Source: Patescibacteria group bacterium (GTDB taxonomy: Bacteria; Patescibacteriota; Patescibacteriia; UM-FILTER-42-10). From it: 64,000 nt of DNA. Location of the stretch: positions 11,013-75,012 of the forward strand of contig JBAYKW010000004.1 in assembly GCA_041664365.1 (NCBI GenBank). Direction: 5' to 3'. Made by a program: the position numbers and the translations under genes. The notes beneath the pieces are model-generated. The model was not told the DNA's origin. It did not search any database and saw only the letters and a program-made list of their open reading frames with translations. Each line of letters starts with the position of its first letter. The first letter of the stretch is position 1. Shown here in pieces: positions 7,184 through 50,168 of this stretch.

Positions 7184-8584
7184 TCACTTTTTTAAATTCA
7201 ATTTAATATGCAGATCATCCAACTGCTGTTCGCTGACCGCTGATGGCGAATTCATGAGCAGATCGCGGTTGTCGCCCGTCTTCGGAAATGCCACAACCTC
7301 TCGGACATTGGTTCGGTTAAGCAATATCATTAACAGCCGGTCAATTCCCGGCGCGATTCCGCCATGTGGCGGAACGCCGTATTGAAAAGCTTCCAGCAAG
7401 TGCCCGAATTGTTCGTGTGCCTCTTCTTTGGAAATACCAACTAATTCCAAAATCTTTTCCTGTATTTTATGATCATAAATCCTTAAACTGCCCCCACCGA
7501 CTTCATATCCGTTTAACACTAAGTCATGCTGCCAAGAACGGGCCTTGAGCGGTTCATATTCCAGTAACGGCAAATCCTCAGTGCGCGGAGCGGTAAAGAT
7601 ATGATGAAACGGCACATGCTTTCCGTCTTTCAGTTCCGGTTCAAAATATGGCCAGTCAACGATAAAGCAAAATGCCAGCTCGTTCGGATCATTTTTATTC
7701 ATCCGGATATCCGGTTTATCATTTCCATATTTTTCCATCGCTTCCTGATACGTGATACGGGGCCATGGAGAAAAGGTAATCTTTTTTTCCGGAAATAATT
7801 CCGTAACCAGCTTAGTGAACATTCTTTCCGTCAGATTCAGTATCTCATCCTGGCTCATAAATGACATTTCCATATCCAACTGATAGAACTGGTCCGGTGC
7901 ACGGTCAGAACGGGAATCTTCATCTCTAAAACACGGTGCAATCTGAAAATATTTTTCAAATCCAGCCACCATTAACAGCTGTTTATACTGCTGTGGTGAT
8001 TGTGGCAGGGCATAAAATTTACCCGGGTATACTCGGGAAGGAACCAGATAATCCCTTGCACCTTCAGGAGTAGATTTACCCATAATCGGTGTCTCTATTT
8101 CAATAAACCCTTCCGTATGTAAAAAATCCCTGATGTACTTATTAAATTTGGAGCGCATAATTACCATCTTTTTATTTGAATCTCTGCGCAGATCCAAGTA
8201 CCGGTATTTATAACGAATCTCTTCCGCCACTTCTTCTTTATCATTTTCCACTATTTCAAATGGAGGAGTCTTAGACTCGGTAAGAATGTTTAATTCCAGC
8301 GCTTCTATTTCAACATTACCGGTCGCCATGTTTTTGTTGACCAGTTTCTCCGGGCGTTCATTAACCTGCCCGATAATTTCCACCACAAATTCCGGTCGAA
8401 GTTCCTTCGCTTTGTTTACCAATTCTTCATTGCCCGGTAGAAAAACCACCTGCACGATTCCCGATACGTCGCGCAAATCTACAAAGACCATTTTACCCAT
8501 TCGGCGCGCAGACTGAACCCAACCGTTAAGTTTTACTTTCTTGCTGATATGACCGGCGGTTTCAGTAATTAAAATGCGTTTCAT
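7184..8584 (-). CDS. aspS: Aspartyl-tRNA synthetase, short form without the GAD insertion
   Basis: Class II motifs: QSPQQYKQLLMVAGFEKYFQIAPCFRDEDSRSDRAPDQFYQLDME and GGGSLRI..GIAPGIDRL; N-terminal OB fold. Confidence 0.85.
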   Translation of the reverse strand: MKRILITETAGHISKKVKLNGWVQSARRMGKMVFVDLRDVSGIVQVVFLPGNEELVNKAKELRPEFVVEIIGQVNERPEKLVNKNMATGNVEIEALELNILTESKTPPFEIVENDKEEVAEEIRYKYRYLDLRRDSNKKMVIMRSKFNKYIRDFLHTEGFIEIETPIMGKSTPEGARDYLVPSRVYPGKFYALPQSPQQYKQLLMVAGFEKYFQIAPCFRDEDSRSDRAPDQFYQLDMEMSFMSQDEILNLTERMFTKLVTELFPEKKITFSPWPRITYQEAMEKYGNDKPDIRMNKNDPNELAFCFIVDWPYFEPELKDGKHVPFHHIFTAPRTEDLPLLEYEPLKARSWQHDLVLNGYEVGGGSLRIYDHKIQEKILELVGISKEEAHEQFGHLLEAFQYGVPPHGGIAPGIDRLLMILLNRTNVREVVAFPKTGDNRDLLMNSPSAVSEQQLDDLHIKLNLKK

Positions 8585-11313: not shown

Positions 11314-13326
11314 CTACTTGATTACGACCAGTTTCCTGATCAGATAGGAGCCATTGGTTGACCTAGCCACCGCGAAGTAGACTCCACTGGGCACCTTTCT
11401 GCCGTCCGGAGCAGTACCGCACCAGGTAACCGTTGTTTGTCCTGCTGAAGGACTGGTGTTCCAGATTGTACGCCCGGCCACGTCGACGATACTGATTTCG
11501 CTCAGTGCGAGACTCGTAGCCCAAGTCATTTGCACCACGGAACTAGTGACGCTCGGCGAAAGTCTGAACCAGACACCGCTATCCAGATCGTCTTCCGGCA
11601 CCGCAACTGCGCTGCCGACGTTGAAGTAAAGGTTGCCAGTGTAAATCAGTCCTGTGTAGTCGCCGTATCCACCGGCTGTCGTGAGTTTGACTCTGATAAC
11701 ACAGGGTGCCACTCCGATGCTGTTGACCGGGATCGTCAATGCTGTGGTATTACCATTCAATGTGTAAACCGTACTGTCACGGCTCGTTTCGGTGAGATGA
11801 TACACCATTGCCTGGGTGAATTCACCAAACTCCCCGTTCGACTGGCCAAACAGACGGATTACTCCCCCGTCCAAAACGGAGTTGGTACTGCCGAAAGTGG
11901 TTTCGAGCGTTCCATTACCGTCCTGATCGACGCCGAACCGACATCCCGGACCATTGCTGATGTAGCACTGGCCGAACCCCAACGCGTTCAAGTAGTCCTC
12001 CTCGGTGAGATGCGGCATTTCCACAACGGTGAAGAGCTTGCCGAGCGCGTTGTTGTTGGCAACGATCTGCAGAGCCTGGTTGTATTCCAGAGTGTAGGAA
12101 TACGCACCGTGGTTGTCCGTCCCGGCATAAGCATTTACCCTGCGGAACGGGTTCAGGTTCTGCTGTTGGACCAGGTCAAGCCTCGCCATGTTTAAATCGT
12201 GCCGGCCGAAGATGGTCAGATCCGCAATCCAGTAAGGATACGGGTTGATGTTGTCCTGATTCACTACCAGGTCACCTGTGGTTGTCAGCTTGTTGAGCAC
12301 CTGGAAACCCAGGAAGTCTTGATCCGACAGAGCCAGATCAATGTTGGTGGAATTCCACTGAACCACCTGGTCATTCTGCGGAACGAAAGTCGGGCTGAAA
12401 GGATGAGAGGCAATACGGACTCCTCCTCGGGCTGAGACACTATCCGCGAACTGCTGATGCGTCCAAAGCTGGAAGCTCTGGTTCTCGCTGGCAATCTGCG
12501 AAGGCGTTCTCAAACACCGGTTGGTGATGTGGTGGATTTCGTTGTCCACCGCATTGTTGACCGTATTATCATCCGTCGACCCTTCACTGCCGGCGATCAC
12601 CAGCAATTCACTATCCGACATGTCCGCCGCACGTTCTGCCATGAATCCGCATTCAAAGTCAGAGAACTCATAGCCGTGATCCGTCCACCAGTAGATGTCC
12701 AGATCCACCGCCTTTGAAGCCGAGGGAATCAGACCCCAGGAACCACCCCACTCGCCGACACTATCCGTGAAGAAAGAGTGGGCGTGGGTATTCGACGAGA
12801 ACTGGTTCGAGTACAGCGGCAGCTGTTCACCCAGAATCACCTGGAAGAACTGGTTCTTCTGAACCAAATGCAAGCAGAGTTCATCCCGGAACCGTACGTA
12901 CCAGCGGAACTCCATCCGGTCACCGATTGTAAATCCGGCAAAGCGCGGATCGTTCAGGTTGATCAAGGAATGCGCTTCATAAATATCATCGGTGATTTCG
13001 AACGCGCACGACGACCAAACCGGGGTCTGGTCATAGACGAACCAAACACCCGCACTGTTACGGGCGTAAAGGATCATCTCTTCCAGCCACAGCCGGTTGA
13101 TGGCACCCTGGTCCTTGAACACGTAGACCGTGTGGATAATGTTATTGATCGCGGTGCGATCACGAACGATCCAGGGCATATCCCCCGCCTGGTCCTTACC
13201 GGATGTGTTGGGATGTTTCAGTCCCGAGTCAAAAGGAGTGTACTCCTTCACCTCCACCAGTTCGATTGCCTGCAGATTGGCACTCCAGAATAAGAATGCC
13301 ACGAGAATCAGAATAATGCGCTTCAT
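11314..13326 (-). CDS. Large secreted protein with a T9SS/FlgD-Ig-like C-terminal sorting domain; GC-rich, probably foreign
   Basis: SD AGGGGA lies before the second ATG (MKRIILILVAFLFWSANLQA signal peptide). The last about 60 aa (ISIVDVAGRTIWN..TVTWCGTAPDGRKVPSGVYFAVARS..KLVVIK) match the T9SS CTD pattern. The gene is about 55% GC in a 35-40% GC contig. Confidence 0.6.
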   Translation of the reverse strand: MKRIILILVAFLFWSANLQAIELVEVKEYTPFDSGLKHPNTSGKDQAGDMPWIVRDRTAINNIIHTVYVFKDQGAINRLWLEEMILYARNSAGVWFVYDQTPVWSSCAFEITDDIYEAHSLINLNDPRFAGFTIGDRMEFRWYVRFRDELCLHLVQKNQFFQVILGEQLPLYSNQFSSNTHAHSFFTDSVGEWGGSWGLIPSASKAVDLDIYWWTDHGYEFSDFECGFMAERAADMSDSELLVIAGSEGSTDDNTVNNAVDNEIHHITNRCLRTPSQIASENQSFQLWTHQQFADSVSARGGVRIASHPFSPTFVPQNDQVVQWNSTNIDLALSDQDFLGFQVLNKLTTTGDLVVNQDNINPYPYWIADLTIFGRHDLNMARLDLVQQQNLNPFRRVNAYAGTDNHGAYSYTLEYNQALQIVANNNALGKLFTVVEMPHLTEEDYLNALGFGQCYISNGPGCRFGVDQDGNGTLETTFGSTNSVLDGGVIRLFGQSNGEFGEFTQAMVYHLTETSRDSTVYTLNGNTTALTIPVNSIGVAPCVIRVKLTTAGGYGDYTGLIYTGNLYFNVGSAVAVPEDDLDSGVWFRLSPSVTSSVVQMTWATSLALSEISIVDVAGRTIWNTSPSAGQTTVTWCGTAPDGRKVPSGVYFAVARSTNGSYLIRKLVVIK

Positions 13327-13415
13327 TTCGCTACTTCCCCTCATTTTGGGCGTTTTGTCAATGACCGTGACTCAAATCTGAGTAACCTTAGTATGTCAAA
13401 CAGAGATTTATTGTC

Positions 13416-46952: not shown

Positions 46953-46980
46953 AACAAAAAAACCGGGATTAATCCGGCCT
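46953..46980 (-). terminator. Rho-independent terminator ending the tRNA-Pro / structured-RNA transcript
   Basis: Minus strand ggccggattaatcccgg followed by ttttttt; a second weak cgc-ttc-gcg + U-run lies just upstream. Confidence 0.5.
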
Positions 46981-47269
46981 TACAGGGCCCCCAAAAAATC
47001 GCGAAGCGGTTTTTGGGAAAGCATCAAACATTGGAAAATATTACCGAGCAAATCAGGAGCACACCCGGGCAGTTGCGTAGCAACTGCATCGGGGAGCACG
47101 GATTTGCGAGGAAAGGGGCACAGACCCGAAACCAAAAACAACCAAGCTTGCTTGGTTGTGACAAGTGAAGGGTCTGATGACCCGTGGTCGGGGTGAGAGG
47201 ATTTGCCCGCCCAAGGCGGGTCCGCCTCTGGCGGAAACCTCAAGAGTGTTTTCTCTTCAAAAATCTTAC
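46981..47269 (-). ncRNA. GC-rich structured non-coding block downstream of tRNA-Pro; identity unresolved
   Basis: About 55% GC, multiple stable hairpins (e.g. cagttgc-gta-gcaactg), no credible ORF (the 155-aa track ORF is low-complexity Pro/Ser/Gly), bounded by a terminator. Confidence 0.3.
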
Positions 47270-47346
47270 TGGTCGGGGTGGGGAGATTTGAACTCCCGAT
47301 CTCATGCACCCCGTGCATGCGCCTTAAGCCACTAGGCCACACCCCG
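47270..47346 (-). tRNA. tRNA-Pro (anticodon GGG) with an unusual C33
   Basis: Manual cloverleaf: acceptor cggggtg/caccccg, D arm gcct-agtggctta-aggc, anticodon stem catgc/gcatg with loop aCGGGGt, T arm gggag-ttcaaat-ctccc, encoded CCA. Confidence 0.6.
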
Positions 47347-47573
47347 TTAGAAATTATTAATATTAACAAAACAGAAGCCCTACCCTTAGGACTAGATAAT
47401 CGCACTGGCTCCGGATAGGAACGTGGGTACCCGCAACTATATTCCACGGAACATAGCGATCTAGGGTTCCCGATGCGATAATCCTGTAGAACCGGATTAA
47501 ACTAGAACCTAATAGTAGAGCAATTTAAGTATACTTTTTGAAATGTGCTTTGGCAAGTCAAAAATATGTTGTA

Positions 47574-47609
47574 ATAAAAAAAGGCCCGTTGCGTTTGCAA
47601 ACGAGGCCT
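47574..47609 (-). terminator. Rho-independent terminator ending the small-ORF island transcript
   Basis: Minus strand aggcctcgtttgcaaacgcaacgggcct followed by ttttttt; 5 nt after the stop of the 65-aa ORF. Confidence 0.5.
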
Positions 47610-47613
47610 TAAG

Positions 47614-47811
47614 TTAGGTCAAATTGGTGCTGTGGTTTTCCCATTCAATTTTGAGGAAGACCATCCCGCATCCCGTATCAGCCAGTTCATACCGGCAATG
47701 ATTCGGTTCCGGATTCACACCCAAAGAACGATCTGTGTCACCAACCACCCTGGTGCTGATTTCCTGTCCGGAGCTTCCGTCCGGAATAGGTTCAGTGCTG
47801 TTGCTTGTCAC
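47614..47811 (-). CDS. Small hypothetical protein (65 aa, GTG start) in the GC-rich island
   Basis: Strong SD AAGGAGG 7 nt before GTG; product VTSNSTEPIPDGSSGQEISTRVVGDTDRSLGVNPEPNHCRYELADTGCGMVFLKIEWENHSTNLT. Confidence 0.45.
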   Translation of the reverse strand: MTSNSTEPIPDGSSGQEISTRVVGDTDRSLGVNPEPNHCRYELADTGCGMVFLKIEWENHSTNLT

Positions 47812-47833: not shown

Positions 47834-48019
47834 TCAGTCTTCTTTCTCCTGCTCGTCCTCCGTAGGAGTGTTCGGCAAGCCGGGAATCCCGACAAAATAA
47901 GGCCGATACTTTCTCCTTGGAGTGCTGGTTACAGAGCCATGAAAAGTGGGTTTGATTTCTGCTTGCTTATCGCGGAAATCCGACTCATTCCCATTAGAGG
48001 CATCTTTGTTCTTCGGCAT
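47834..48019 (-). CDS. Small hypothetical Pro/charged-rich protein (61 aa) in the GC-rich island
   Basis: SD GGAGG 8 nt before ATG; MPKNKDASNGNESDFRDKQAEIKPTFHGSVTSTPRRKYRPYFVGIPGLPNTPTEDEQEKED. Confidence 0.5.
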   Translation of the reverse strand: MPKNKDASNGNESDFRDKQAEIKPTFHGSVTSTPRRKYRPYFVGIPGLPNTPTEDEQEKED

Positions 48020-48290
48020 TTCTTACTCCTCCACTTGGTTTAGGGTTGACCGCTAGTGACCCGGGTATAATGTACAATAATCAAAAAAACCATCTTGCCG
48101 ATGGTCTGGATAAATATATTTTAGAAATACACTAATCAGCCATCAGCTCAATGGGTAAAATAACCAAAAAAGAAACTCCAATTGCTGGAAGCAACGGTTT
48201 TTCGGTTATCTGAGCTGAGGTTAATTGAATATTTCATGGGATTATTGGTATGAATAATAACATATCGATTTTTTGTGTCAAATATGGCTG

Positions 48291-48378
48291 AGTAATCCGT
48301 AACTGGTAGACTCGTAATTCGTAAACTGAACTCAGAACTTATTATTTATTACAAATTACTATTTACCAATTACCAAAT
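48291..48378. repeat. Heptad-repeat palindromic intergenic element (copy C)
   Basis: Minus strand GGTAATTGGTAAATAGTAATTTGTAATAA....TTTACGAATTACGAGTCTACCAGTTACGGATTAC. Confidence 0.55.
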
Positions 48379-48433
48379 AAAAAAAGCCCTTGATTACAAG
48401 AATCTCAGGCTGAAAGAGCGATTTGGAAACGGA

Positions 48434-48847
48434 CTACATGTCCATGTGTCCGCCGGGATGATAATCGGGAGTCGCATACTGGACATCACCGATTTCCACA
48501 AAATAGACAATGGGTTTGTCGGGGCAACAGCAGGTGTAGGGGGTCAGCTCGCAGTCAACACACCGAGACTCGCCGTCATTAATGGTCACACCATTGAGGC
48601 AAACCAGCCCAGTGCGCAGTTCTCTCGCCGGACCCCAATTGGGCTCCACCGTGTATCCCCCGCCGGTCATGTCGAACTCGCCAGCGAACTCGATCACATA
48701 AACCTCTGGCATATCCGGGCAACAGCAGTTATTGGGATGCAGACCGCATCCCGCGCACTGGTACTGACCGGTCTCGGTCAGTATAACGCCGTCCGGACAC
48801 CGGATGTCCTGTACCTGGTCAAAGACAGTGGCAGCTTGCGAATCCAT
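48434..48847 (-). CDS. Cys-rich small protein (137 aa) with two tandem copies of a novel C-x2-C-x6-CCC-PD module
   Basis: SD GGAAAGGA before ATG (MDSQ..); modules ..YQCAGCGLHPNNCCCPDMPEVYVIEF.. and ..SRCVDCELTPYTCCCPDKPIVYFVEI..; 11 Cys. Confidence 0.6.
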   Translation of the reverse strand: MDSQAATVFDQVQDIRCPDGVILTETGQYQCAGCGLHPNNCCCPDMPEVYVIEFAGEFDMTGGGYTVEPNWGPARELRTGLVCLNGVTINDGESRCVDCELTPYTCCCPDKPIVYFVEIGDVQYATPDYHPGGHMDM

Positions 48848-48896
48848 GCTGTTCCTTTCCGGTTTGAAACGGTTCTTGTGGTTACATAACGGCAAC

Positions 48897-49064
48897 CTAG
48901 GCAAACAGATCGTTCAGAGTGTCAATACCCGGACAGTGGCAGACGCATAAATCGATCCGCGTCCGGCAGTCCACACAGCGGTACACGCCGTCATCCTCAA
49001 GACGGGCACGACCCTGGCTTCCGTCCTTCTTCTGGAAATCAATTTCCGGCAACTTCTGAGTCAT
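48897..49064 (-). CDS. Cys-rich small protein (55 aa) with a C-x2-C-x6-C-x-C-x-C module
   Basis: SD GGAGG 7 nt before ATG; ATGA stop-start overlap with the upstream ORF; MTQKLPEIDFQKKDGSQGRARLEDDGVYRCVDCRTRIDLCVCHCPGIDTLNDLFA. Confidence 0.55.
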   Translation of the reverse strand: MTQKLPEIDFQKKDGSQGRARLEDDGVYRCVDCRTRIDLCVCHCPGIDTLNDLFA

Positions 49065-49276
49065 CACACATCCTCCATGGAGTTACCAACATCATCTTGG
49101 CTGGTGATTCTCTGACGGGAATCGACTCGACAAACGCAATTGGTCAGAGAGAGTTTGCAGTGTTTACACCTCCATCTCTGGGTGGCAGGATCGAAGTAAG
49201 CCCCAAACGGCGCGTCTGGCTGATGCCCTCCGCTAGAAGCAGAGGGCACGAGGTAATTATGTCCTCTGTAGACCAT
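49064..49276 (-). CDS. Cys-rich small protein (70 aa from the internal ATG) with a C-x2-C-x6-C-x-C module
   Basis: SD-like GGGAAAAGGA before ATG (MVYRGHNY..); ..TQRWRCKHCKLSLTNCVCRVDS..; the track ORF starts at an upstream GTG (49303). Confidence 0.5.
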   Translation of the reverse strand: MVYRGHNYLVPSASSGGHQPDAPFGAYFDPATQRWRCKHCKLSLTNCVCRVDSRQRITSQDDVGNSMEDV

Positions 49277-49540
49277 TCCTTTTCCCTTCAGGTTGAAGTT
49301 CACATCCTGAACTGCGGATATTGTGAATATTGCATCGGGAAATCATTATTCCCATTATCTTAATGTACAAAATCGAGTTTTATGGCTCGTAAAGATACTT
49401 AATAAGCACCCTTACCAACCATCAAACAAAGAACCGGCGAGATGAGGCCGGTTGTAAAATTTTAATACCAAACCTCTCATCAATGGCAGATGATAATCGT
49501 AATCAGTTTAATAATTAGGTTTGATTTGTAGTTCATGGAT

Positions 49541-49567
49541 TTTAAAAAACTAGCCTCTCGGCTAGTT
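49541..49567 (-). terminator. Rho-independent terminator downstream of ndk
   Basis: Minus strand aaactagcc-gaga-ggctagttt followed by tttttt. Confidence 0.5.
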
Positions 49568-49688
49568 TAATTAATGTGAATTAATGCAAAACTAGCCAGA
49601 GATTCTGGTAATAATCAGGTTAATAATGGAAATTGTTTTTTGCATATTGTTGATTGGAATATTATGCCAGTATGAATCTGCTGTCAAG

Positions 49689-50168
49689 CTATTTTTCCAT
49701 TTCTTTCAGTTCATCGTCATCATAGATCGCCGAAAAATCCAGTTTCTTGTAGTTAAATAATTCGTCCTCATTGAAAAAACGATAAACTTCTTTACTGGCT
49801 GATTCAGGCGAGTCCGAGGCGTGGATAATATTATGGCCTTTGCTCATTGAAAGGTCACCTCGAATGCTTCCTGCATCCGCTTCTCTTCCGGAAGTCGGTC
49901 CGACGATCAAACGGATGGCATTAATTGCACCGAAGCCCTCCAGCACCATCACAACTACGGGGGAAGACTGCATAAATTTTTTTAAATCTTCAAAAAAAGG
50001 TTTGTCTTGGTGATGTTCATAGTGAACTGCGATCAAAGCATCATCTATTGAGATCATTTTCATTCCAACAATTTTTAATCCTTTTCTCTCAAAACGTGTA
50101 ACAACCTCTCCTAGCAGATTCCTTTGCAGGGTATCAGGTTTTATGATAATTAGCGATCTTTGTTTCAT
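49689..50168 (-). CDS. ndk: Nucleoside diphosphate kinase with an acidic C-terminal tail
   Basis: NIIHASD active-site His motif; GDLSMSKG; 4-nt overlap with the upstream REC gene. Confidence 0.85.
   Translation of the reverse strand: MKQRSLIIIKPDTLQRNLLGEVVTRFERKGLKIVGMKMISIDDALIAVHYEHHQDKPFFEDLKKFMQSSPVVVMVLEGFGAINAIRLIVGPTSGREADAGSIRGDLSMSKGHNIIHASDSPESASKEVYRFFNEDELFNYKKLDFSAIYDDDELKEMEK

Follow-up and report, generated by a model that had tools for sequence, protein, structure and literature searches.

The present study of a 64,000-nucleotide stretch of DNA from a Patescibacteria group bacterium (contig JBAYKW010000004.1; hereafter, the window) reveals that three adjacent small genes, A, B, and C, are real genes under purifying selection and that their products form a family of true orphans that is very narrowly distributed, being present in about six public genomes. 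We propose that these products are lineage-restricted, cytoplasmic, putative Cys4 metal-binding mini-proteins with a starvation-gated operon; taken as a whole, this proposal has in our judgment an even chance of being correct. The original prediction, made from the letters of the window, had placed three minus-strand genes for proteins of 70, 55, and 137 amino acids here, and their coordinates are as it described:

49064-49276, minus strand: gene A, 70 amino acids from ATG, with one module, WRCKHCKLSLTNCVC, and exactly four Cys
48897-49064, minus strand: gene B, 55 amino acids, one unit, DDGVYRCVDCRTRIDLCVCHC, whose five Cys and single His are invariant
48434-48847, minus strand: gene C, 137 amino acids, isoelectric point about 4, two tandem units

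Together with two further orphan genes, D and E, they belong to a 2.1-kb islet. The locus in the genome of the window (W) was compared with the related loci L001, L004, L005, L007, and L010; these orthologues come from about six distinct genomes of Patescibacteria, out of metagenomes of groundwater, a marine biofilm, and other sources.

Four modules of the spacing C-x2-C-x6-C-x-C had been pointed out, namely CKHCKLSLTNCVC, CVDCRTRIDLCVC(HC), CAGCGLHPNNCCC(PD), and CVDCELTPYTCCC(PD). A regular-expression search finds exactly these four in the six-frame translation of the 64 kb, all inside A, B, and C, and 1998 of 2000 shuffles of the 870-nucleotide region held none. In A, the module is preceded by the invariant motif APFGAYFD. 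Each unit of C reads C-x13-C-x2-C-x6-CCC-P, the two being joined by the invariant linker GEFDMTGGGY, and the C-terminus, PGGHMD[IM], is invariant except in the most divergent genome. That C is an internal duplication, as had been claimed, is borne out by its two halves (41% identity over 41 amino acids, E = 4e-10, BLASTP). Because of this match, because B aligns over its whole length to one C unit, and because the modules of A, B, and C fall in the same register in profile-profile comparisons (hhalign, E ~1e-4, probability 30 to 54%), the three proteins are paralogues, although for A the statistical support is modest.

The stop codon of A and the start codon of B overlap (TGATG, base 49064 being common to both), whereas C begins 49 nucleotides after B and has its own Shine-Dalgarno sequence; the translational coupling that had been assigned to all three genes thus holds for A-B and fails for B-C. 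A Shine-Dalgarno-like sequence lies ahead of each of the three. A GTG at 49303, which would extend A, is not conserved.

Pairwise ratios of nonsynonymous to synonymous substitution (dN/dS) are 0.16 to 0.35 for A, 0.07 to 0.14 for B, and 0.085 to 0.21 for C, and all three genes show a strong third-position excess of substitutions, so that conservation and codon periodicity both bear out the call of coding genes. Purifying selection on C spans its whole length, linker and termini included. All 12 Cys of C are invariant in the six orthologues, as are the five Cys and one His of B and the four Cys of A; many non-Cys residues of the C units are invariant too. A noncoding RNA in place of the genes was rejected, because Rfam gave no match, the fold z-score of the 931-nucleotide A-B-C transcript is -1.87, and the substitutions follow codon periodicity. 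The same periodicity rules out an antisense open reading frame (ORF) at 48446-48889 on the plus strand as a true gene. Separately, the NCBI record calls C as a 92-amino-acid protein (P0004, 100% identical over 67% of C), and gene A is overlooked by gene callers in most genomes; therefore, the public annotation of the islet is incomplete.

The single-module genes are not kept everywhere. Gene A is deleted in L004 and gene B in L001 and L010. Judged by their flanking genes, L001 and L004 are sister genomes (85 to 95% nucleotide identity), and the absence of B from the one and of A from the other is in both cases a clean deletion. C and at least one single-module protein are retained in every genome; A and B may thus be partners of C that can partly stand in for each other.

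Wide searches brought no relatives outside this family. Scans of A to E and of 16 single units against Pfam, NCBIfam, PHROGs, and PADLOC gave sub-threshold noise only: Pox_vIL-18BP, DTW, and the zinc knuckles of insertion-sequence transposases at E = 0.004 to 0.06 over 11 to 17 residues, and phrog_34842, with a best E of 0.0024 for full-length C and matches to 3 of the 16 units (best E = 0.0098), which we regard as driven by Cys composition. PADLOC had no match at E up to 1. When 1.84 billion representative proteins were searched exhaustively with the C profile (HMMER), only the family itself and two spurious repetitive proteins came back; word-index searches with C, B, and A returned orthologues only, and scans of genome contigs and of metagenome contigs returned the same three loci each. 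There was no relative of A, B, or C in the viral contigs of IMG/VR, nor any tblastn match in the phage records of INPHARED. In the PDB, a sequence search with C gave nothing at E up to 10, and the unit profile matched only at E of at least 0.16, to the zinc knuckle of eL34 and to the ferredoxin-type Fe-S protein PscB. A literature search found neither the spelling of the motif nor any paper on Cys-rich small proteins or attenuation in Patescibacteria, the candidate phyla radiation (CPR). The Cys4/Cys6 mini-domain is new and cleanly defined, its spacing being found in none of Pfam, NCBIfam, the PDB, and the searchable literature; the earlier view that the module fits no standard pattern is upheld, as no curated family or solved structure matched.

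The best-supported functional clue for A, B, and C is attenuator control. Between ndk and gene A lie a promoter-like site and two attenuators in tandem, and a further hairpin follows C:

49659-49687, minus strand: promoter-like site P1, TTGACA-17-TAATAT, directly 3' of the ndk stop codon, 10/12 match
49544-49645, minus strand: attenuator 1, with leader ORF 1, MQKTISIINLIITRISG, at 49592-49645
49544-49568, minus strand: terminator of attenuator 1, AAACUAGCC-GAGA-GGCUAGUUUUUU
49424-49536, minus strand: attenuator 2, with leader ORF 2, MNYKSNLIIKLITIIICH, at 49480-49536
49467-49478, minus strand: 5' arm of the antiterminator of attenuator 2, GAGAGGUUUGGU, immediately after the leader stop codon
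49424-49453, minus strand: terminator of attenuator 2, AACCGGC..GCCGGUU plus a U-tract
48378-48412, minus strand: terminator-like hairpin and T-run after C, nearly invariant in six loci

The -35 hexamer of P1 is invariant in six loci, and a transcript from P1 would be near-leaderless for leader ORF 1. This leader is kept in all six loci with 5 to 8 Ile per 17 residues; its stop codon, UAG, lies inside segment 1 (GGCUAGUUU), and segment 2 is the 5' part of the terminator. In all loci, the segments form mutually exclusive stems, 0:1 at -8 to -13 kcal/mol, the antiterminator 1:2 at -12 to -14 kcal/mol, and the terminator 2:3 at -13 to -14 kcal/mol. In attenuator 2, the antiterminator stem has -14 to -18 kcal/mol, L005 and L010 carry compensatory changes in it, and the III run of the leader is invariant. 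Across the six genomes, Ile makes up 5 to 8 of the 15 to 19 residues in leaders 1 and 2. The A, B, and C proteins themselves contain 1.4 to 5.5% Ile, against a comparison value of 8.9%.

A third unit precedes the orphan pair D-E, located downstream of C:

48083-48281, minus strand: attenuator 3, with a strong promoter, P3, at 48254-48281
48148-48237, minus strand: leader ORF F, MKYSINLSSDNRKTVASSNWSFFFGYFTH, ending in FFFGYFTH
48137-48147, minus strand: antiterminator arm of attenuator 3, GCUGAUGGCUG
48083-48107, minus strand: terminator of attenuator 3
47834-48019, minus strand: gene D, 61 amino acids, orphan, conserved motif YRPYFVG.PGLP
47614-47811, minus strand: gene E, about 65 amino acids, GTG start, orphan, conserved motif A.TGCGMVF
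47576-47610, minus strand: terminator after E

Here, the antiterminator reaches -15 to -20.5 kcal/mol, with compensatory changes in L010, and FFFGYF is invariant. Both D and E have a high GC content and are conserved in every locus, even in the divergent L010, where the E motif is kept, and they fall into two deep allele groups. Their dN/dS (0.18 to 0.61 for D and 0.34 to 0.95 for E) indicates weaker selection than on A to C. Gene D has no Pfam or PADLOC match.

The leader/antiterminator/terminator architecture is conserved: in all three units and six genomes, the 3' arm of the antiterminator is the 5' arm of the terminator, and the leader stop codon lies in or beside the 5' arm of the antiterminator, where a terminating ribosome would block that stem. 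In every genome and unit, antiterminator and terminator exclude each other. Overall, antiterminators range from -12 to -20.5 kcal/mol and terminators from -8 to -14 kcal/mol, with few compensatory changes (L005, L007, and L010). The AT-rich spacers are better conserved than the genes. No Rfam match was found for the attenuator units, and no other promoter-like site between the terminators and gene A or D. From this arrangement, we infer an attenuation mechanism with a role in starvation. A-B-C would be one transcript from the promoter just after ndk, passing through two tandem ribosome-mediated, Ile-rich attenuators; A-B-C would be read through at a shortage of charged Ile-tRNA and D-E at a shortage of charged Phe-tRNA. 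The impression of a system, which the first reading of the window had conveyed, has gained substance, as an operon behind conserved attenuators stands beside a second, similarly controlled orphan pair. A Fur/Zur-like box upstream of A (14/19 by eye) is conserved neither in L005 nor in L007 and was dropped.

As for the proteins, three roles had been put forward, namely small metal-binding proteins, disulfide-rich secreted peptides, and mobile-element cargo, and the first is likely the best fit. An AlphaFold2 model of the unit, built from a mixed alignment of both C units and B, has a predicted local distance difference test score (pLDDT) of 61, rising to 70 to 76 over residues 11 to 30, and runs in the order strand, hairpin, Cys loop, strand, with a β-hairpin directly before C-x2-C. 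Four invariant Cys packed into 13 residues behind a β-hairpin, the first of them two positions after an aromatic residue, are the hallmark of a structural metal site of the zinc-ribbon/rubredoxin kind, and Zn(II) is the default metal for a cytoplasmic protein. The best Foldseek matches in a viral library, all non-significant, were of TFIIB-type or zinc-ribbon folds over 16 to 20 residues at 0.4 to 1.4 Å.

In the mechanism that we favor, each module would be a β-hairpin whose own second strand leads into a rubredoxin/zinc-ribbon-type knuckle, [YWR]-x-C-x2-C. Six residues on, a noncanonical half-site (C-x-C in A, C-x-C-H-C in B, and C-C-C-P in C) would join the knuckle to form a tetrathiolate site. 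The metal is most likely a structural Zn(II). In B and in each C unit, a further pair of invariant ligands could accommodate another metal or form a binuclear site. C would be an acidic pseudo-dimer of two modules, with A and B as single, partly interchangeable modules, and the proteins would bind a partner, be it protein or nucleic acid, under amino-acid limitation rather than act as enzymes or secreted peptides. C is very acidic (net charge -9 to -16), and this argues against direct DNA binding by C.

A number of observations weigh against the proposal. Most attenuator stems are invariant; therefore, covariation support is thin, a few pairs only. The leader ORFs have no Shine-Dalgarno sequences; leaders 1 and 2 show a weak third-position excess of substitutions, and ORF F shows none. 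Leader-peptide attenuation normally controls genes for biosynthesis or tRNA synthetases, not orphan proteins. On the structural side, the AlphaFold2 model of full C has a pLDDT of 38, which is no confident model; the PDB holds no fold match to the models; and the second half-site is not a standard knuckle. The zinc site is a putative one, and the six ligands per unit of B and C also suit an Fe-S cluster or a polynuclear Cu/Zn thiolate site.

These six invariant ligands are one ground for regarding the family as redox or Fe-S proteins, that is, with Fe(Cys)4 sites as in rubredoxin and desulforedoxin or with [2Fe-2S] or [4Fe-4S] clusters, perhaps bridging the C units or C with A or B; such proteins would carry electrons or sense redox state or oxygen. 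CCC-P recalls the Cys-Pro of ferredoxins and the adjacent Cys-Cys of desulforedoxin, and the PscB match aligned C-x2-C...C-P. However, that match is non-significant (E = 0.77), the ferredoxin spacing C-x2-C-x2-C-x3-C-P is not present, and A has four Cys only. Furthermore, no Pfam Fe-S family, Fer4 included, matched A, B, C, or the units, and no redox partner genes are among the neighbors in the window and the syntenic loci. We therefore consider this explanation unlikely.

A polynuclear thiolate site would instead suit metallothionein-like buffers or chaperones for Zn(II) or Cu(I), in which the CCC and CVCHC runs would form clusters and acidic C would store or pass on metal, perhaps with a P-type ATPase. 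Metallothioneins and Cu(I) sites of the CopY/Mac1 type typically contain C-x-C and C-C runs. Cys content in A to C is 5.7 to 9.1%, against 0.6% in native proteins, yet far below that of metallothioneins, and conserved β-strands and many invariant non-Cys residues do not fit such a protein. In 4 of the 6 distinct genomes, a P-type ATPase gene does lie downstream, at a distance of about 1.5 kb. However, its domains (Cation_ATPase_N and Cation_ATPase_C) indicate the Ca/Mg type and not a heavy-metal P1B pump, and since it is missing from the site in L005 and L010, a functional tie of A-B-C to it was dropped. No metallothionein family hidden Markov model matched A, B, or C. Of the two metal-based alternatives, this one seems to us the slightly less probable.

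Small, Cys-rich, repeated, and clustered genes could also encode precursors of exported peptides, either disulfide-rich or of the ribosomally synthesized and post-translationally modified (RiPP) type. However, A, B, and C have no signal peptide, leader-like segment, or hydrophobic N-terminus by Kyte-Doolittle hydropathy, the maximum 11-residue score in the first 40 residues being 1.2 or less. RiPP precursors of the SCIFF/ranthipeptide, lanthipeptide, or bufferin type have a maturase (radical SAM, LanM/LanBC, or MNIO) beside them and, in most cases, an exporter or protease. Within about 6 kb, in the window and the syntenic loci, there are no genes for radical-SAM, lanthipeptide, or MNIO enzymes, proteases, ABC exporters, or other maturases or transporters; the earlier remark that no modifying enzyme is adjacent was correct, and it now covers the related genomes as well. 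Selection along the whole length of C, linker and termini included, also speaks against a precursor. The suggestion of disulfide-rich secreted peptides thus finds no support, and we rate the exported-peptide explanation as highly improbable. Because of the missing signal peptide and the missing maturase and transporter genes, we read the mini-proteins as cytoplasmic.

The composition of the islet raises the question of its history. Its GC content is 0.52 to 0.60, against 0.40 for the window, and the GC content at third codon positions (GC3) of B and C is 0.55 to 0.66 in every genome, against about 0.35 (0.22 to 0.47 in native genes, those for ribosomal proteins and EF-Tu included). Codons ending in A are nearly absent (GCA, ACA, and TCA are never used, and the GAA share of Glu codons is 0.25, the native-gene value being 0.74), and A to C are poor in Ile and Lys. 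The codons CCC and CCU, which belong to tRNA-Pro(GGG), account for 9 of the 17 Pro codons in A to C, the native genes using them for 27%; CCA is used twice in A to C of the window and never in the five other C orthologues. The tRNA-Pro gene after the islet may be linked to this codon style. The GC-rich, foreign context that had been described is therefore real in its composition; it does not, however, mark a recent insertion in this genome, because the islet occupies the same site in all related genomes found.

At four-fold degenerate sites, identity between non-sister pairs is 0.31 to 0.63 for C (mostly at least 0.42), 0.19 to 0.40 for ndk, and 0.32 to 0.48 for gatA; ndk and gatA are at or near saturation for most of these pairs, and C is less diverged. 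The C gene tree disagrees with the host tree, in that the closest pair for C is not the sisters L001 and L004. A mosaic of alleles is seen, W going with L001 and L004 upstream of A and with L005 and L007 in D-E. The islet may be foreign, with recombination in the conserved flanks carrying it from lineage to lineage; alternatively, selection may maintain a special codon style.

The first of these histories leads to another explanation, compatible with metal binding, in which A-B-C is foreign accessory cargo spread among related Patescibacteria by recombination and could serve as an anti-defense, addiction, or competition module, its small acidic proteins acting on the machinery of another organism or a phage. 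The GC3 values and the avoidance of A-ending codons in all orthologues, the lower divergence of C and its tree, the mosaic alleles, the differential loss of A or B in sister genomes, and the strong acidity of C all favor it. However, no integrase, transposase, or repeat boundary is found at the islet, the chromosomal site is identical in every genome, IMG/VR, INPHARED, and PADLOC hold no relatives, and selection on codon choice could instead account for the low synonymous divergence. We find this explanation unlikely. For the mobile-element cargo of the original prediction, this means that a foreign origin, or exchange between lineages, is indeed indicated by the composition and by a gene tree at odds with that of the hosts, whereas the missing mobility genes, the missing phage or viral relatives, and the fixed position speak against a mobile element.

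The window also carries genes for ribosomal proteins and EF-Tu, as well as gatCA and ligA. A, B, and C lie on the minus strand between ndk and tRNA-Pro, at the same site in about six genomes, and the gene order ligA-gatC-gatA-receiver-ndk-[A][B][C]-[D][E] is constant in all orthologous loci. The flanking features and two noncoding blocks are as follows:

49689-50168: ndk, flanking the islet
47270-47346, minus strand: tRNA-Pro(GGG), syntenic with the islet
47380-47560, minus strand: conserved noncoding block upstream of tRNA-Pro
46960-47270, minus strand: GC-rich block directly downstream of tRNA-Pro

The tRNA gene follows the islet in L001, L004, and L005 (ARAGORN, loci with enough flank). By Pfam annotation of five loci, the neighbors are ligA, gatC, gatA, a receiver-domain protein, ndk, tRNA-Pro, the P-type ATPase, and a PALP enzyme, and PAS kinases also occur. 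In L001, an 83-amino-acid GIY-YIG-like ORF (MYFTYVLLSKKDNKFYTGY..., 7553-7804, plus strand) sits between E and tRNA-Pro, an insertion that shows local gene turnover at the site. The 47380-47560 block holds the pseudo-peptide EYSCGYPRSYPEPVRLSSPKGRASVL in W, L004, L005, and L007, a site resembling a promoter (47528-47556), and a hairpin resembling a terminator (47376-47393), with no Rfam match. The 46960-47270 block has a core of about 150 nucleotides that is near-identical in W, L004, and L005 and partial in L001; it exceeds the coding genes in conservation, shows predicted hairpins and terminator-like ends (47138-47159 and 46959-46981), and likewise has no Rfam match. It may be an undescribed noncoding RNA or the leader of the P-type ATPase gene. 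Elsewhere in the window, the only other strongly GC-rich gene (11314-13344, minus strand; GC 0.54, GC3 0.67) looks horizontally acquired; its 676-amino-acid product has an N-terminal signal-like segment and weak C-terminal matches to FlgD-Ig, CHU_C, and Por_Secre_tail, the last a type IX secretion sorting domain.

If attenuator control and codon style are taken together, the islet could be a compact amino-acid-starvation module, in which A-B-C and D-E are gated by attenuators sensing Ile-tRNA and Phe-tRNA and are written in host-rare codons, and in which the Cys-knuckle proteins act as effectors, binding RNA polymerase or the ribosome in a DksA-like or hibernation-like manner, for example. The host-rare codons of the islet, with A-ending codons avoided and Ile and Lys depleted, would be translatable while the common tRNAs are uncharged. 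It is established theory that genes expressed in starvation favor codons whose isoacceptors remain charged. This extension of our proposal is speculative and more probably wrong than right by a wide measure; it supposes an organism that relies on its host for amino acids. Patescibacteria have tiny genomes rich in unannotated small genes, and, to our knowledge, almost nothing is known of starvation sensing in these episymbionts. We believe the locus to be a rare case of classical ribosome-mediated attenuation over non-biosynthetic orphan genes in the CPR, for which a literature search found no paper, and it retains a foreign codon style at a fixed chromosomal site across several diverged genomes. 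Should the starvation link be true, it offers a functional handle on otherwise opaque small proteins; should it be false, A to C stay lineage-specific hypothetical proteins of about six genomes in public data.

Among known systems, the zinc ribbon and rubredoxin knuckles (TFIIB, eL34, and small archaeal and bacterial C(P)xCG proteins) come closest to the module. They have in common with it a β-hairpin leading into [aromatic]-x-C-x2-C-[G], small size, cytoplasmic location, and four Cys, and the only sequence or structure echoes found are of this type, all sub-threshold, with no profile or fold match at significance. However, a zinc ribbon or rubredoxin needs two hairpin-tip CxxC(H) knuckles sharing one metal. 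Each module here has one CxxC, and the second hairpin knuckle is replaced, six residues on, by C-x-C, C-C-C-P, or C-x-C-H-C.

The fungal copper-fist domain (C-x2-C-x8-C-x-H after a β-hairpin) has a similar hairpin, C-x2-C, short spacer, and C-x-[CH], and the GAL4-type Zn2Cys6 domain has a similar first half, C-x2-C-x6-C, and six ligands, as do the units of B and C. Neither family was listed in a Pfam scan at E up to 10 with A, B, C, and the 16 units. In contrast to acidic C, both are eukaryotic, DNA-binding, basic, and helical domains, so that the resemblance is one of pattern only. Bacterial metallothioneins, CopY-type C-x-C proteins, and desulforedoxin (C-x2-C...C-C) share C-x-C, adjacent Cys, and small size with our proteins; however, Cys density is lower here, β structure is ordered, many non-Cys residues are conserved, and none of these families matched. 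Metallothioneins such as SmtA/BmtA and MymT, by comparison, have a very high Cys content and few ordered or conserved residues besides Cys. The 4Fe-4S ferredoxin motif, C-x2-C-x2-C-x3-C-P, differs from the C-x2-C-x6-C-C-C-P seen here.

For the control region, the counterparts are ilvL/ivbL, pheL/pheM, and trpL of Enterobacteria. Unlike these, the units described here have orphan small proteins downstream, a Patescibacteria host, near-leaderless leaders without Shine-Dalgarno sequences, and no Rfam family. The architecture itself is that of the ilv and phe leader-peptide attenuators, with a short leader ORF, an III or FFF run near its end, a stop codon at the antiterminator arm, and, likewise, a mutually exclusive antiterminator and intrinsic terminator.

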